From a virus: a stretch of DNA of 64,000 nt. A program made the position numbers and the translations under genes. The notes under the pieces are model-generated. The model did no database searches and was not told the origin of the DNA. It worked only from the letters and a program-made list of their open reading frames with translations. The DNA lies in IMG/VR virus record IMGVR_UViG_3300021962_000035, positions 57,824 through 121,823 of that record; one strand, 5' to 3'. Position 1 is the stretch's first letter, and every line of letters begins with the position of its first letter. Positions 55,164 through 64,000 of this stretch are shown one piece after another.

Positions 55164-55171
55164 GATATATA
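55164..55171 (+). promoter_or_regulatory. GATATATA motif
   Basis: Between uvsY and uvsW, only 4 nt before the ATG, so spacing is atypical. Confidence 0.35.
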
Positions 55172-56722: not shown

Positions 56723-56730
56723 GATATATA
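56723..56730 (+). promoter_or_regulatory. GATATATA candidate late promoter heading the 56.7-60.8 kb operon
   Basis: 16 nt upstream of ATG 56747. Confidence 0.62.
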
Positions 56731-56746
56731 AAGAAAAACTTCGGAA

Positions 56747-57286
56747 ATGAGAATAAAGAAATTTGACACTTTTAGCGAATCTATATTAGAGGGTAAGTCT
56801 GATTATTATAAAGGAAACACCAAATTAAGCAGATGGCTTAGAAAAGTGGACGGGAATATGGAGTACGAATATGATAAGCTTAGAGCTGCATCGGAGCCAG
56901 TAGGCAACGACAACGGGGCTTCTACTATCAATAGCGTAAATTCTCTTTTACCTTTAATGGGAAGATTAATAGCTAGCTCTGGTGCTGCTATAGCAGATTT
57001 CTTCTTTAAAGGTGATTCTAAGGATTCCTACTCTAAATTATCGAAATCTGAGCTAAAGGATAAAAAGAAAGACGTTTTAGACGATTGGGAGAAAGAAAAG
57101 ATAGGTGATAAGAACGTTACAGAAAAAGACGCTGAAGATTTTTATAAATCTGGGGTACTTAAGGGCAAAAAATACTTTGGTAAAGATTATCAACCACTTA
57201 AGCCTAAAAACGACGACGAGAAACAATATAGCAGCTATTTGACGGGTGCTATGGGAAGATATTACGATAAAATCCACAAGAAATAA
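56747..57286 (+). CDS. Hypothetical helical protein with capsid-targeting-like leader
   Basis: MRIKKFDTFSESILE|GK leader. Confidence 0.75.
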   Translation: MRIKKFDTFSESILEGKSDYYKGNTKLSRWLRKVDGNMEYEYDKLRAASEPVGNDNGASTINSVNSLLPLMGRLIASSGAAIADFFFKGDSKDSYSKLSKSELKDKKKDVLDDWEKEKIGDKNVTEKDAEDFYKSGVLKGKKYFGKDYQPLKPKNDDEKQYSSYLTGAMGRYYDKIHKK

Positions 57287-57287
57287 T

Positions 57288-58220
57288 ATGAGTAATAGGG
57301 TTTTAGATTTTTCTGGCTTTAACAAGCTTTTTGAAGGCGGTGCTGCTATAAAGACCGCAAGGAGAATCCGTGAGGACGAATTTCCCAAAACCCTTGAGAG
57401 TATAAAGCAAATTCTTTTCCCGTTACTTTCAATTGACCCAACTAAGATTAATGACGAGTATATAATAATCGGAAGTATCGGTAAGAAGAAGAACCCGGAC
57501 GACACATCCGGTGACCTTGATCTTGGATACGATAGCTCTTGGTTTGCCAGAGAACATGGTATAACTGTGAAAGAGGTTTCTTCATTTACCTATAATATTA
57601 TCATAGAGAAATTAGGAGATGCTTTAGGGTATCAGCCTGAGATAAATTTTATGAAGGGACTGAACATAGTTAGCGTTGGATGGCCAATTGAAGGTGATGT
57701 TAATAAGGGAATAGTTCAGCTTGATCTTATCCCGATTTCTAGTATGGAATGGGCGGAGTTTATTTACTATTCGCCAAACTATAAGATAGGAGAAAGCAAA
57801 TATAAATCGGCTCACAGAAACTGGTTGCTTTCCGCTATATTATCAGCAAGAAAAGAAGTATTAGATACTGACGAAGCTGGTGAAATTATGGACTACAATT
57901 CACCTGTCCTAATTCTTAGTGATGGTCTCTTCTGGCACACCAAATCATATAGAGGGGCTAGAATACCTAGATTAAAACACTCTAAAAAAGTGGAGGGAAG
58001 CGAGAGATTCGTAACCAGAGACCCACAGGAATTTGTAGATTTCGCTCTAGGACCTGGCTACACTGTGAATGATGTTAAAACATTTGAGGATGTGCTAAAA
58101 ATTATAGAAGACCCAAAATTTGATCTGCATGACAAATTACCTGAAATAAAACAGAGATTTTTGGAATACCTTGAGAGAGTTGGACTAGAAATACCAACGG
58201 AAATAAATAGAATCGATTAA
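57288..58220 (+). CDS. Pol-beta-superfamily nucleotidyltransferase with capsid-targeting-like leader
   Basis: IIGSIGKKKNPDDTSGDLDL (hGS...DhD) plus third acid in VQLDL; start ATG 57288 (MSNRVLDFSGFNKLFE|GG). Confidence 0.82.
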   Translation: MSNRVLDFSGFNKLFEGGAAIKTARRIREDEFPKTLESIKQILFPLLSIDPTKINDEYIIIGSIGKKKNPDDTSGDLDLGYDSSWFAREHGITVKEVSSFTYNIIIEKLGDALGYQPEINFMKGLNIVSVGWPIEGDVNKGIVQLDLIPISSMEWAEFIYYSPNYKIGESKYKSAHRNWLLSAILSARKEVLDTDEAGEIMDYNSPVLILSDGLFWHTKSYRGARIPRLKHSKKVEGSERFVTRDPQEFVDFALGPGYTVNDVKTFEDVLKIIEDPKFDLHDKLPEIKQRFLEYLERVGLEIPTEINRID

Positions 58221-58230
58221 AAAATAAAAT

Positions 58231-60258
58231 ATGTCAGGAATTAGTCATTTATATGATCTCTATAACAAGAAAGGAAAGGATTTTATCGATAGTCTTTTCA
58301 ATTCTTATGTTACCGTCAATGAGAAGATGGATGGATCTGCTTTTATCTTCGAAAGAGATATAGAGACAGGTAAATTTAATTTCTTCAAGAGAGATCAAAG
58401 AAACCCTATAACGTTAGTTGATAGGACATTGATGAAGTATTACGAGAAGCCTATTCAGTATATCGAATCCCTTCCTCCTCACATCATCAAGGAGATTCCT
58501 AGAGGGTGGAGATTCGGTCTTGAATATTTTGCCAACAATGCTCCAGTAGAGATTGTTTATGACGAGGTACCTAAAAACAACCTAATACTTTCTTATGTTC
58601 ATAAGAAGGATGAATTAGGAAAGGCTATGGGAACTATTCAGGGCAAAAATAAGCTTGACGATTGGGCAGATTTATTAGGTGTTGAAAGACCTCCTATTAT
58701 TTTTCAAGGATACTTAAGCAAAGAACAAAAGGACAGAATCCTAGATTTCTTAAGAACCCCATTCGAAGATCTCGTAACTGAGTACAAAACTAGAAGCTTC
58801 GTTGCTTTTATTATCGGAGTACTTAATCCGGAATTAAAGAAAACAGCTTTAAATGCAGATCTACAAAAACCAATAGAAGGTATTGTATTTAGATTCGGAG
58901 AAGAGGATGCAGAGCAGGAGCCAATCTTATCTAAGATGGTAGATCCTGTTTTCACAGAACTTGCTAAATCTAAAGCGAAAAAGAGAGTAGAAGAAAAACC
59001 TAGCGACTTCTTAGGAATCACGATACTTGATGTAATGAACTTCATTCTTGAACAAGGTGTCGAGACATTCGAGGTTGAAGGAACAACGGAGGATGAAAGA
59101 TACATTTCATTCATTTCTGACGTCTTCTCTAAATTCCTTGATGAGTATGGTTATAAGTACAAAGGAGCAGATTTTCAGGAGCCTGAGTACTTAAAAAGAG
59201 AAGAGTTTAGATTAAACAAAAATCTGATAACTGATAAAAGAGTATTAAGATACCTAGATGAGGATGAGTCTTTTGAATCTTTATTTAAGCTTATTCTAAA
59301 TTCGTTTAGAAAGATCAAAAAAAGAGCAGGCGGAATAATAACTCCGGGAATCATAGATCAATTCAATTCGGTGGTTTCTTCGATAGAGAAGATGGTAGCT
59401 GCCAAAGAGAGCAAGCCAGCTATAACCGAATCCGAAATGCCTTCCTTCCTTGACTTCAAAAAGAATAATCTAAAACCTAAAAAGGTGGAGTATGTAACTA
59501 GCGAATCTGAGGATGGATCAAAGGCTGACGATCACTTCTATTCTTATAACGAATTCATATCAGCTTTAGAAACAATTGATACAACCAAGAAGGATATACC
59601 TAAAATTGAGGAGAACAAAGAAAAGGTAGAAGAGGATGAAAAACCCGAACTTAAAGACGTTAATCTTTTAGTCGGTAGATTCCAACCATTCCATAACGGG
59701 CATTTAAAAATGGCCACTTTCCTTAAGGAGAAAAATGATCTTCCGAGTATAGTTGCTGTCGTTCACCCCGGACATAATAAATCAGGTAAATCCCCATTCA
59801 GTGAGAATGTGGTAGCAAAATATATGGAATCGGTGGTAAAAGACAGCCCGGGAAAAATTGAAGGGTACTTCATTGTTAAAAGGGGTTTACTTGGAGTAAT
59901 TTACGGAGCAGCTAAAGAGATGGGTTACAAAGTTAATCTAATCGGAGCTGGTGACGATAGAATGGAAGACTACAAAAAACAATCAGAATACCTTAAAAAA
60001 GCTGGTGGAGATTTTCCTAAGGAAATTGAGGTTGTAGAAACACCTAGATCCACATCAGGTACAGAAGTTAGAAAAGCTATAGAAAATGAAGATTTCTTAG
60101 CATTCAAGAAATTGGTTCCGCAGGGGGTATCATCTTTCTATAACAGCTTGCTTTCCTCAATAAACGGTAAGGGTATCAAGGAATCGGAAGAAGCTATTAC
60201 AGAGAGTGAAATAGCGGAGCTTGAAACAAAAGCTTTAAAAGAAAATATTGAAAAATAA
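58231..60258 (+). CDS. RNA ligase (Rnl2-like) domain fused to a HIGH-family (NadM/cytidylyltransferase-like) nucleotidyltransferase
   Basis: Ligase motifs I EKMDGS, III FGLEY, IV EGIVFR, V LSKMVD; C-terminal LLVGRFQPFHNGH, SPFS, SGTEVRK...LVP. Confidence 0.85.
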   Translation: MSGISHLYDLYNKKGKDFIDSLFNSYVTVNEKMDGSAFIFERDIETGKFNFFKRDQRNPITLVDRTLMKYYEKPIQYIESLPPHIIKEIPRGWRFGLEYFANNAPVEIVYDEVPKNNLILSYVHKKDELGKAMGTIQGKNKLDDWADLLGVERPPIIFQGYLSKEQKDRILDFLRTPFEDLVTEYKTRSFVAFIIGVLNPELKKTALNADLQKPIEGIVFRFGEEDAEQEPILSKMVDPVFTELAKSKAKKRVEEKPSDFLGITILDVMNFILEQGVETFEVEGTTEDERYISFISDVFSKFLDEYGYKYKGADFQEPEYLKREEFRLNKNLITDKRVLRYLDEDESFESLFKLILNSFRKIKKRAGGIITPGIIDQFNSVVSSIEKMVAAKESKPAITESEMPSFLDFKKNNLKPKKVEYVTSESEDGSKADDHFYSYNEFISALETIDTTKKDIPKIEENKEKVEEDEKPELKDVNLLVGRFQPFHNGHLKMATFLKEKNDLPSIVAVVHPGHNKSGKSPFSENVVAKYMESVVKDSPGKIEGYFIVKRGLLGVIYGAAKEMGYKVNLIGAGDDRMEDYKKQSEYLKKAGGDFPKEIEVVETPRSTSGTEVRKAIENEDFLAFKKLVPQGVSSFYNSLLSSINGKGIKESEEAITESEIAELETKALKENIEK

Positions 60259-60266
60259 AACTTAAA

Positions 60267-60830
60267 ATGAGAAGACTAATATCTACATTCGAGCAATTCA
60301 AAATAAACGAGATGGATTCAAAGAATCTACACGAATCGGATGGATTCGGGACTTCCCCATTTCTACTAATTAAGAACGGTGATATTTACAACTACTTCTT
60401 TAACATAGAAGAAGAAAATGGAGAATCCGAGAAGGGGTTTCATTTCATAGTTGGGAAATACTCTAACAACGAAGTTATTGATGGACCTAAAAATTCTTAT
60501 TGCGTATTAACTTTAAATGAAATAGCTCAAGAGCTCATAGAGGATATCGCTGTAGAGAAGGAGGAAGTTCCCCAGCCAAACACTATGAAATTCAAAGCTG
60601 GCGGAAACATGGTTTCTAGAATAATGGAATATTGCTCAAAATGCTTAAGCAGCTATTTGGAGGCAAATCCTAAGGTGAATAGAATATATGACGAGATTCA
60701 GGATAATCTAGAGTTTGACGGGAAGGGAGAGTATATTGAGTTTATGAAATCGATAGTTATTTCTTACCTAGGAACAAACTGGTCAGTTCAACAGGGATCC
60801 ACTAAAAAATCGGTGTTAATAAGCAGATAG
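60267..60830 (+). CDS. Hypothetical protein with capsid-targeting-like leader
   Basis: MRRLISTFEQFKINE|MD leader and a second L-H-E site. Confidence 0.75.
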   Translation: MRRLISTFEQFKINEMDSKNLHESDGFGTSPFLLIKNGDIYNYFFNIEEENGESEKGFHFIVGKYSNNEVIDGPKNSYCVLTLNEIAQELIEDIAVEKEEVPQPNTMKFKAGGNMVSRIMEYCSKCLSSYLEANPKVNRIYDEIQDNLEFDGKGEYIEFMKSIVISYLGTNWSVQQGSTKKSVLISR

Positions 60831-61726: not shown

Positions 61727-61734
61727 GATATATA
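61727..61734 (+). promoter_or_regulatory. GATATATA candidate late promoter
   Basis: Immediately after the terminator, 19 nt upstream of ATG 61754. Confidence 0.62.
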
Positions 61735-61753: not shown

Positions 61754-62560
61754 ATGCTTAGGATTTTATCATTTGATCAATATTTATCAGAAGGAGCGGA
61801 TTTCGCAGATAAACTAAATGTTCTTAAAACAACTAAAACAACTTCAGCAGATCCTGTTGTTGATAGTTTTTATAGCTCCATTAAAAATACCCAGCCAGAA
61901 GAATTGCCTAGAGGCAGCAACAAAGGTCCAAAGGTCGAGCCTTTACAAAAAGGTGTTGGTGCAAGACCCGGAGATCCTTGGTGTGCAGCATTTGTTCATA
62001 GTGTTTTAACCAAGACTAATTTTTCTTCGGATATAAAGAAACAAATACCTGACGATGCAGCAGTTAGATATCATTGGAATAATTCAAAGGCAAAAAAGAT
62101 CTCATATGATTCAAAAACAAGCCTAGATACTATACTTCCTGGTATGGTTTTTTGTTATCTTACGAAGGATAAAAAAACTAATACTTACCCTGGACACGGA
62201 CACACTGGTATAATTTTATCGGTTGATAAAGACAAGAAAACTTGGACCGGTGTGGAGGGTAACGCAAATCCTCTAGACGGGAGCAGAGAAGGTTATGGAA
62301 CCTTCATCGTAACTAGAAAATTTGCAGATCCAAGCATATCTAAAGATCCCAAAGATCACCCTGCTAAAATGCTAGGTTTCATAGATTATTTTGCACCATA
62401 CAGAAAAAATTCAGGATTTACTAATTCTCTATCATCTAAATTGAAATCAGCTCTAAATGAGCTACTACCCAAAACCAATAAAGAGGTAGCTTATCTCTCG
62501 GCGCATCCAGAGGTATTAAAAGATTACGAAGAAAATTATAACAACAGAAATAAATCATAA
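61754..62560 (+). CDS. CHAP/NlpC-P60-type peptidoglycan amidase/peptidase with capsid-targeting-like leader
   Basis: SNKGPKV...PWCAAFV (Cys), GHTGII (His), VEGNAN motifs; MLRILSFDQYLSE|GA leader. Confidence 0.85.
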   Translation: MLRILSFDQYLSEGADFADKLNVLKTTKTTSADPVVDSFYSSIKNTQPEELPRGSNKGPKVEPLQKGVGARPGDPWCAAFVHSVLTKTNFSSDIKKQIPDDAAVRYHWNNSKAKKISYDSKTSLDTILPGMVFCYLTKDKKTNTYPGHGHTGIILSVDKDKKTWTGVEGNANPLDGSREGYGTFIVTRKFADPSISKDPKDHPAKMLGFIDYFAPYRKNSGFTNSLSSKLKSALNELLPKTNKEVAYLSAHPEVLKDYEENYNNRNKS

Positions 62561-62959: not shown

Positions 62960-64000
62960 ATGGCTAAATTCCCATCAAATCCCAAGATTGGCCAAGCTTT
63001 TATTGGCGATCCAGGAACGTTATACGTCTGGAACGGATATCAGTGGCAGCTAGTTACGGTTGGGGGGAGTGCTGGAGCACAAGGTGCCCAGGGAGCACAA
63101 GGACCAGCTTATGGTTCTAGCGGTTCTAGCGGATCCTCAGGAGCCCAGGGTGCTCAAGGTGCTTCTGGATCGGGAACATCTGGTTCTTCCGGTGCTCAAG
63201 GGGCTCAGGGTGCTCAAGGTGCTTCTGGATCGGGAACATCTGGTTCGTCCGGTGCTCAAGGGGCTCAGGGTGCTCAAGGTGCTTCTGGCTCTGGTTCTTC
63301 TGGCTCTGCTGGTACTAGCGGGGTTGATGGTAATTTTTATGGTTCTTCTGGAAGCTCTGGTAAAAATGGGTCTTCGGGAACATCAGGATCTAACGGGTCC
63401 TCGGGGACATCAGGATCTAATGGGTCTTCGGGAAGTTCGGGAAGTTCGGGAAGTTCTGGTACCTCGGGTACCTCTGGTAGTTCAGGCAGCAGTGGAAGCA
63501 GTGGAACTTCGGGAAGCAGCGGAACTTCGGGATCTAATGGATCTAGCGGAACATCGGGAACCTCTGGTATTGCAGGAATCTCAGGTATTAACGGTTCCGA
63601 TGGAACTAGTGGAACTTCGGGATCTAGCGGGACCTCAGGATCTAGCGGGACCTCCGGAGCTAACGGTTCCAGTGGAACCTCTGGTGCTAATGGATCATCT
63701 GGATCTAGTGGAACTTCAGGAACATCTGGACTTGCAGGAATTGCTGGCGTCAATGGTTCTAATGGAACGAGTGGAAGTTCAGGGAGCAGTGGAGGTACTG
63801 GATCTTCAGGAACATCCGGATCTAGTGGATCTAGTGGATCTAGCGGAACATCTGGATCTAGTGGGTCTGCAGGAACATCCGGATCTTCAGGAACCTCTGG
63901 CTCTAGTGGAAACACGGGTTCTAGCGGAACATCAGGTTCCAGCGGAACTTCGGGTTCTAGTGGAAGCTCTGGATCCAGCGGGATTACCGGATCTAGTGGA
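62960..64000 (+). CDS. Gly-Ser-Ser/Gly-Ala-Gln collagen-like fibre protein, truncated by the window end
   Basis: Translated by hand: MAKFPSNPKIGQAFIGDPGTLYVWNGYQWQ, then GAQ and GSS/GTS triplets; no stop seen before 64000. Absent from the track because it has no stop. Confidence 0.9.
   Translation, partial: MAKFPSNPKIGQAFIGDPGTLYVWNGYQWQLVTVGGSAGAQGAQGAQGPAYGSSGSSGSSGAQGAQGASGSGTSGSSGAQGAQGAQGASGSGTSGSSGAQGAQGAQGASGSGSSGSAGTSGVDGNFYGSSGSSGKNGSSGTSGSNGSSGTSGSNGSSGSSGSSGSSGTSGTSGSSGSSGSSGTSGSSGTSGSNGSSGTSGTSGIAGISGINGSDGTSGTSGSSGTSGSSGTSGANGSSGTSGANGSSGSSGTSGTSGLAGIAGVNGSNGTSGSSGSSGGTGSSGTSGSSGSSGSSGTSGSSGSAGTSGSSGTSGSSGNTGSSGTSGSSGTSGSSGSSGSSGITGSSG
63121..63300 (+). repeat. 60-bp in-frame tandem repeat, 3 copies (GSSGAQGAQGAQGASGSGTS)
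   Basis: Lines 63121, 63181 and 63241 align with 60-nt periodicity; copies 2 and 3 are nearly identical. Confidence 0.9.

Follow-up and report, generated by a model that had tools for sequence, protein, structure and literature searches.

A run of four genes in an uncultured T4-like jumbo phage of Bacteroidota was found to encode two adjacent proteins with three nucleotidyl-transfer domains, and three of the four genes start with a leader of the capsid-targeting type. Judged from these sequences, it is probable that repair enzymes are packed into the phage head and injected together with the DNA. The run lies in IMG/VR virus record IMGVR_UViG_3300021962_000035. The window analysed here comprises 64,000 nucleotides, which are the last 64 kb of the 121,823-bp record, and the completeness of the record is estimated at 44%. 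An earlier note on this DNA had described four genes with 1-10 nt spacing behind one motif, and three transferase folds in two adjacent genes. Both statements held: the genes are co-directional with gaps of 1, 10 and 8 nt, the motif GATATATA stands in front of them, and a Pol-beta, a ligase and a HIGH domain are all found. Gene 2 spans 57288-58220 (310 amino acids), with an ATG start that agrees with its homologues, and gene 3, the ligase-HIGH fusion, spans 58231-60258 (675 amino acids). There is about an even chance that the products are late-made, tagged cargo that is trimmed by the prohead protease, ejected with the DNA, repairs nucleic-acid ends and makes a cofactor. The features of the run are the following; pLDDT is the predicted local distance difference test of AlphaFold2 (AF2) models.

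56723..56730, + strand: late-promoter-like motif GATATATA, 17 nt upstream of the first ATG of the four-gene run
56747..57286, + strand: gene 1, a lysine-rich protein of 179 amino acids with leader MRIKKFDTFSESILE and a mature pI of about 9.2; poorly conserved, candidate for a replaceable cargo
57288..57335, + strand: gene 2 leader MSNRVLDFSGFNKLFE, predicted cleavage before GGAAIK; F11, E16, G17 and G18 invariant; lower pLDDT of 67-75
57336..58220, + strand: gene 2 mature part, predicted Pol-beta-superfamily nucleotidyltransferase with family-X-like palm and thumb; G62-S63, D76, D78, D146 and a SKYKxxxRN helix
58231..59010, + strand: gene 3 N-terminal domain, RNA-ligase-type adenylyltransferase (PF09414); K32 in KMDG, E98, E216-G217, K235
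59011..59412, + strand: gene 3 helical middle domain, about residues 257-390; AF2 helices with pLDDT of about 60-88
59413..59580, + strand: gene 3 linker with an I-x-E-S site (E400) and two leader-like motifs; mostly low AF2 confidence
59653..60165, + strand: gene 3 C-terminal HIGH-superfamily nucleotidyltransferase; GRFQPFHNGH at residues 482-491, SGTEVR at 609-614
60267..60830, + strand: gene 4, an acidic protein of 187 amino acids with leader MRRLISTFEQFKINE; identity within the clade 45-90%

A probable capsid-targeting tag and the prohead protease

The T4 leader has the sequence MKTYQEFIAE. Its targeting function needs residues 4 and 7 and its processing residues 8 and 10, and gp21 cleaves after L/I-x-E (PMC9026906). 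The leaders found here match these rules in sequence, with aromatic residues at i and i+3 that are followed by [LIV]-x-E. For counting, a strict motif was defined as [FY]-polar-x-[FYW] with [LIVFM]-x-E within the next seven residues, and the expectation was taken from its internal frequency. The strict tag was present on 10 of 105 N-termini, compared to 1.15 expected (Poisson P about 4e-7). The tagged set includes genes 1, 2 and 4, the three leaders that the earlier note had pointed out, as well as the CHAP gene at 61754 and six more genes, among them that of the capsid protein. No tag was found at the N-terminus of gene 3.

The strongest sequence evidence for a tag came from the junction in the gene 2 family. 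Of 150 representatives, 25 begin at MGG, 68 have leaders of 6-25 residues that end directly at GG, and 25 are internal copies following a like junction. The P1 residue of the junction is E in 89/93 cases and the P3 residue is L, I or V in 85/93. From this junction and the MGG starts, the leader is a module that can be separated from the enzyme, and the junction between them is conserved and of the cleavage type.

The record also encodes the head proteins with which such a tag would operate: a T4-type portal, a Gp23-type major capsid protein and a gp21-type S77 prohead protease with a repeat-rich, scaffold-like tail. An N-terminal tag obeying the T4 rules and a gp21-type protease therefore occur together in this phage, as expected of T4-type cargo.

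G000:C1:45290-47251 (= L092:3491-5452), upstream of the window: S77 protease fused to a long repeat tail

The protease protein repeats YS[EK]YLAE ten times with a period of 14 residues. The repeats are similar to the cargo leader, which may dock on them. Just before the gene of an 893-amino-acid protein and the protease gene, another, unrelated enzyme of the Pol-beta type was observed (L092:46-741, G000:C1:41845-42540; NTP_transf_2, 22.9 bits).

In gene 3, leader-like motifs were found inside the protein. The linker in front of the HIGH domain contains PSFLDFKK (residues 404-411) and YSYNEFISALE (437-447), neither of which had been described in the earlier note. Their residues F406 (57/57), F409 (56/57), F442 (56/57) and E447 (57/57) are retained in the gene 3 homologues, including the divergent protein of LR756500, and the motifs are better conserved than the catalytic residues of the fusion. 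AITESE occurs at 397-402 and again at 655-660. E400 of the first site is kept in 55/57 homologues and the second site is not conserved, so the earlier description of ITE sites around the HIGH domain stood for the upstream site and not for the downstream one. The idea that the HIGH domain had formerly been a separate tagged gene was dropped, since HIGH proteins that stand alone and bear a tag, when searched for, were mostly fragments on short contigs.

The late timing of the run was read from the motif GATATATA. It occurs 11 times in the window, where nearly all genes are on the + strand, compared to 6.2 expected, and every copy is on the + strand; the 122-kb record as a whole has 22 copies, again all on the + strand and none on the other. 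Of these 22, sixteen precede, at a distance of 17-32 nt, the ATG of a gene for sheath, protease-scaffold, baseplate or fibre proteins or of a tagged gene. In its sequence context GATATATA behaves like the late promoter element of the phage. Generic scans for sigma-70 promoters and terminators gave background levels. One copy at 55164-55171 of the window lies 5 nt before the helicase ATG, a spacing too short to serve the helicase.

Alternatively, the proteins might not be packaged but act in the cytoplasm as ordinary late enzymes of RNA repair or NAD+ salvage, and the tag might have another purpose or reflect gene starts shuffled among neighbours. Cytoplasmic enzymes of phages such as RNA ligases, those of the RlaP type and NMNATs are well known (PMC7824862, PMC9503650). 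The leaderless homologues of gene 2 in Agrobacterium phage Atu_ph07 and the Lak phages show that the tag is dispensable for the enzyme, and four of the five complete relatives examined encode NadV and a CCA enzyme elsewhere. We regard this alternative as rather unlikely because the tag obeys the T4 targeting and cleavage rules exactly, occurs also on the propeptide of the capsid protein and is repeated in the protease-scaffold protein. The [LIV]-x-E end of the family junctions, those inside polyproteins included, argues in the same direction.

Gene 2, a predicted Pol-beta-superfamily enzyme

The Pol-beta-type signature previously seen in gene 2 was confirmed in its family. Across 87 diverse relatives G62-S63, D76, D78 and D146 were near-invariant (at least 90% conserved), together with a SKYKGxYRN helix. 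By alignment, these residues constitute the predicted Pol-beta catalytic pattern, and the hG[GS] loop, the DxD pair and the third acidic residue on the palm sheet, which characterise the superfamily, were all found in gene 2. An AF2 model computed on the alignment of the relatives reached a pLDDT of 95.7 and a predicted TM-score (pTM) of 0.90.

The gene 2 family is large. A full scan of 1.84 billion representatives gave 508 representative clusters (50% identity) at E<=1e-3, and almost all of the members are metagenomic. The gene 2 protein had no match in Pfam, PHROG or NCBIfam, nor in a single-sequence search of the PDB. With the family profile, the only match in the PDB was a marginal one to kanamycin nucleotidyltransferase.

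The fold was then compared with known structures. Foldseek returned only weak matches, to family X and terminal transferases. In an exhaustive VIA structure search all of the top 50 matches were family X polymerases, covered over palm and thumb, with Z-scores of 8.5-9.6 over 165-204 residues for Pol beta (residues 148-335), Pol lambda, TdT, Thermus Pol X and Pol X of African swine fever virus (ASFV). For Pol beta, Pol lambda, TdT and ASFV Pol X the Z-scores were 9.1-9.6. ASFV Pol X was aligned over 166 of its about 175 residues (Z 9.3-9.4), whereas RNA-specific transferases, CCA enzymes and CD-NTases were aligned only over the palm of about 100 residues with Z-scores of 5-7.5. A BFVD search gave matches with weak E-values that included giant-virus Pol X, and the relatives among predicted viral structures are all uncharacterised. 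Since family X ranked first throughout the VIA search, gene 2 is modelled as a member of the Pol-beta superfamily with a Pol-X-like palm and thumb. The middling Z-scores of about 9 limit this to a likeness of fold. None of the Pol X models of Pfam and NCBIfam matched gene 2, so sequence models do not place it in family X.

The kinship of gene 2 to CCA-adding enzymes or CD-NTases that the earlier note had considered was not upheld, the nearest folds being family X DNA polymerases. As candidates, a CD-NTase, a CCA-adding enzyme and a toxin were set aside because such families align over the palm only. RlaP was ruled out with its hidden Markov model (HMM): PF10127 had no match in gene 2, in the 87 relatives, in the record itself or in the five complete relatives. 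The absence of RlaP from all five leaves the RlaP role open there.

With family X DNA polymerases as the nearest folds, a role in DNA instead of RNA repair has to be considered. A minimal family-X-type polymerase would fill short gaps and the ligase would seal nicks in the 350-430 kb genome of the phage, at its entry or replication. Besides the structural ranking, with ASFV Pol X aligned almost whole and the giant-virus matches in BFVD, this is favoured by the position of the genes directly after primase and helicase, and it would parallel the Pol X and ligase of ASFV. Opposed to this are the match of the ligase domain to the RNA_ligase family PF09414 only, the natural fusions with CCA-adding tRNA nucleotidyltransferase, and the missing match to a Pol X Pfam model; moreover, a Z-score of about 9 at 10-17% identity indicates a common fold and not a common substrate. 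DNA repair is kept as an alternative because of the Pol X fold, and we consider it unlikely. An RNA substrate is favoured by the ligase family and by the fusions with the CCA enzyme.

Gene 3, a fusion of ligase and HIGH domains

In the N-terminal 260 residues of gene 3 the sole family match was PF09414 RNA_ligase. Its score of 16.6-19.6 bits is below the cut-off of 27 bits, but 18 of 19 gene 3 relatives match PF09414 at E<0.01, and the orthologue in locus L069 scores 28.4 bits against the cut-off of 27. The neighbours of gene 3 in a language model (Atlas feature matches) carry PF09414 too. The family HMM, the KxDG lysine and the further motifs together place gene 3 in PF09414. K32 of KMDG, E98, E216-G217 and K235 are retained in 56-57 of 57 unique homologues, every ligase motif being intact in 56/57, and they can tentatively be assigned to the ligase motifs I, III, IV and V. 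This clade-wide retention indicates selection for catalysis. The only exception was the protein of LR756500, 32% identical, which reads N, Q and DS at these motifs. The standalone ligase homologues in phages of 630-735 kb read EDVQGS and lack the lysine.

At the place of gene 2 in LR756500 (L002:3704-4969), beside the lysine-less fusion, we observed a leader-bearing protein of 421 amino acids with an intact EKLDG. It had no match in Pfam or NCBIfam.

The earlier description of an Rnl2-like ligase was retained at the level of PF09414 and not at that of the Rnl2 subfamily. Like T4 Rnl2 and other PF09414 ligases, gene 3 has the KxDG nucleophile, a conserved Glu, EG and Lys, and then a helical domain. 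In contrast to T4 Rnl2, it shows no match to T4_Rnl2_C (PF18043) in a Pfam scan and has an added HIGH domain. Alignment of the ligase profile to the single T4 Rnl2 sequence with hhalign gave a probability of 1%.

The C-terminal domain passed the generic models of the HIGH superfamily, PF01467 CTP_transf_like with 28.7 bits (cut-off 21) and TIGR00125 with 31.3 bits (cut-off 27.7). The HxGH and ISxTxxR-type motifs and a Rossmann-like fold were all present. In Foldseek NaMNAT, NMNAT and PPAT were matched about equally, with E 2e-6 to adenylyltransferases and a target-normalised TM-score of 0.70 to 1f9a. A profile of the domain matched an archaeal NMNAT in the PDB (E 6e-5), but the likeness to archaeal NMNAT is confined to the first about 50 residues of the domain and SGTEVR. 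The NMNAT equivalog models failed by a wide margin (TIGR01527 22.5 vs 181.2, NF002243 28.3 vs 127), and only the first about 50 residues were aligned. Of the former assignment to a HIGH-family, NadM-like domain, the superfamily was thus confirmed and the NadM/NMNAT part was not.

The HIGH domain may synthesise NAD+, but the equivalog models fail, the nearest complete relative lacks NadV and one subclade has lost the HIGH histidines. NadV is encoded in four of the five complete relatives; the 44%-complete record, like the nearest relative, does not have it. In two relatives that have NadV, the ligase-HIGH fusion is the sole HIGH protein found. The HIGH histidines are retained in 54-55 of 57 gene 3 homologues and are absent in the L068/L069 subclade, which reads FDNLD.

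The fusion could also be mainly a structural or assembly protein for which catalysis is secondary or dispensable. T4 RNA ligase 1 (gp63), for example, also promotes tail-fibre attachment. This alternative was retained because distant homologues have lost catalytic residues: Lys, Glu and EG in LR756500 and in the megaphage standalone proteins (EDVQGS), in addition to the HIGH histidines in L068/L069, and the proteins persist. The retention of the linker motifs and the position of the genes behind a late-type motif, among structural genes, fit such a role. The clade, however, keeps all ligase motifs and the HIGH histidines nearly throughout, and we judge a mainly structural function very unlikely.

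Linkage of the enzyme types in other phages

The polymerase-like enzyme, the ligase and the HIGH domain are linked beyond this clade by adjacency and by fusion. A ligase-like gene with KLDG in Agrobacterium phage Atu_ph07 extends over the beginning of the leaderless gene 2 homologue. Downstream of this pair (L090:7694-10786) four or five paralogous proteins of about 255 amino acids were noted, which start with MRWHQL.E. The Lak phage homologue of gene 2 had no ligase neighbour.

Fusions were observed in three proteins of other T4-like phages. P0244 (1802 amino acids) contains three gene 2-type copies, a KVDG ligase-like region, a HIGH and a Nudix domain. In P0303 (1636 amino acids) a HIGH domain, a CCA-adding enzyme, DUF5661, a Pnkp-like kinase, an HD domain and a gene 2-type enzyme are joined, and P0348 combines HIGH, CCA-adding enzyme and gene 2-type enzyme. 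The DNA of the first two was checked; both are stop-free open reading frames in the standard code near gp23 or portal genes. The polyprotein domains are set apart by [LI]-x-E sites such as LLLE|GG and VITE|SE. A small leader-bearing gene after the LR756500 fusion (L002:6973-7257) looks by eye like the DUF5661 segment of P0303 (residues 941-996).

RlaP extends RNA at its 3'-OH end by 1-2 nucleotides (bioRxiv 10.64898/2025.12.29.696909), and its pairing with RNA ligases is already known (PMC7824862; bioRxiv 10.64898/2025.12.29.696909). Gene 2 shows the same genomic association, as it is adjacent to the ligase in the clade and in Atu_ph07 and fused to it in P0244. Both are Pol-beta-superfamily enzymes that adjoin or are fused to an RNA ligase, but the C-terminal half of RlaP (PF10127) is helical, whereas the thumb of the gene 2 model is Pol-X-like and contains beta strands.

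Proposed course of events and comparison with known systems

We propose that the four genes would be transcribed late, as part of a variable capsid-cargo island. The amphipathic tag would dock each product onto the scaffold core of the prohead in the manner of the T4 capsid targeting sequence, and the gp21-type S77 protease would then cut after the Glu of the tag. For the fusion, the tag would be internal. After ejection, 3'-OH ends that lack nucleotides would be extended by the polymerase-like enzyme and sealed by the ligase; RNA, for example cleaved tRNA, is the likeliest substrate. An adenylylated cofactor, possibly NAD+, would come from the HIGH domain. The combined effect would be to blunt RNA-cleaving or NAD+-depleting defences ahead of phage gene expression. 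In a wider form, which we put forward tentatively and hold to be somewhat improbable, T4-like jumbo phages load a whole tagged repair and cofactor kit that is injected against such defences, in some lineages as a protease-cut polyprotein, and that includes a previously unrecognised, widespread Pol-X-like family.

Several observations weigh against this proposal. LR756500 and the megaphage homologues have lost the ligase nucleophile, and L068/L069 the HIGH histidines, which hints at a non-catalytic role. Modelling of the whole fusion by AF2 on an alignment of 27 sequences (at least 71% identity) gave no confident model of the ligase domain (pLDDT 30-50). The fold of gene 2 is closer to DNA polymerases than to RNA-specific transferases. 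Its family members in GenBank are only those of Atu_ph07 and the Lak genomes, both leaderless, and the rest are nearly all metagenomic. The late timing of the four genes is taken from the motif, and they are no more syntenic than the region as a whole.

The ingredients of the proposal are already known: the T4 capsid tag, a ligase-associated Pol-beta enzyme and phage HIGH adenylyltransferases. With the T4 internal proteins and Alt the system shares a short N-terminal tag with aromatics three residues apart and an [LI]-x-E site, an encoded S77 gp21-type protease and gp23-type capsid protein, and variable cargo loci. It differs in that the tagged proteins are nucleotidyl-transfer enzymes and cell-wall hydrolases, whereas those of T4 are small basic proteins or an ADP-ribosyltransferase, and in that one tag is internal and polyprotein versions exist. 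The ASFV pair of a minimal family X polymerase and a ligase resembles genes 2 and 3 in that palm and thumb align nearly end to end and the ligase gene is adjacent, but the identity is 10-17%, no Pol X sequence model matched, and the partner ligase of gene 2 is of the RNA-ligase family. ASFV carries its repair enzymes in virions. NAD+ salvage by phage NadM/NadR with NadV has been labelled 'NARP2'. Gene 3 shares with these enzymes GRFQPFHxGH and SGTxxR of the archaeal/NadM type, but its HIGH domain is fused to a ligase and not to a Nudix domain or kinase. NadV accompanies it in four of the five complete relatives, the nearest one being the exception.

Our literature search found no paper on the gene 2 family, on the ligase-HIGH fusion or on tagged repair enzymes, which is weak evidence as subscription journals were thinly covered. 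The injected phage proteins known so far are mostly inhibitors, RNA polymerases or an ADP-ribosyltransferase. If the proposal is true, enzymatic repair by a polymerase-like enzyme, a ligase and an adenylyltransferase would join the list of pre-packaged counter-defences, and a large uncharacterised family would gain a function and a test. The xxE|GG junction would offer a simple sequence rule to predict capsid cargo in uncultured T4-like phages, and foreign proteins could be loaded into such capsids by means of the tag.

Flanking genes and plasticity of the locus

Genes 1 and 4 had no match in Pfam, PHROGs or NCBIfam, and gene 4 had none in the Atlas either, in agreement with their earlier description as flanking proteins of no known family. 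Gene 1 is 27-87% identical to its relatives and is absent or replaced in several loci. Primase and helicase directly precede the run, and the region from the primase through the small genes past gene 4 is syntenic in 80 IMG/VR loci. The co-conservation of the four genes is therefore of little weight by itself. The complete relatives that share the region are 343-434 kb in size, three of them with terminal repeats. No match to the region was found in GenBank phages by blastn.

In locus L035 a thioredoxin takes the place of gene 1, and three extra tagged genes are inserted between the fusion and gene 4, which by reading of their sequences, not by HMM, are NlpC/CHAP-like, unknown and SGNH-like. 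Gene 2 was not found at the locus in L037, L061, L068-L070 and L073. The view of a discrete cassette was therefore given up: gene 1 is replaceable, tagged genes are inserted in relatives and the region from primase to CHAP is syntenic as a whole. By analogy with the variable internal-protein region of T4, the locus seems to be a plastic island of cargo genes. In L069, which belongs to the subclade with the degenerate HIGH motif, a metallophosphoesterase-like gene of 500 amino acids (L069:9979-11481) directly follows the fusion.

61754..62560, + strand: peptidoglycan hydrolase with a CHAP domain and leader MLRILSFDQYLSE, preceded by a separate GATATATA copy at 61727; tagged cargo candidate

By its leader, this hydrolase may be a cell-wall enzyme delivered from the head. 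No tRNA genes were found within the window. At its end, 62960-64000, an open-ended gene with long collagen-like GSSGTSG repeats and a locally raised GC content (0.448) presumably encodes a fibre protein.

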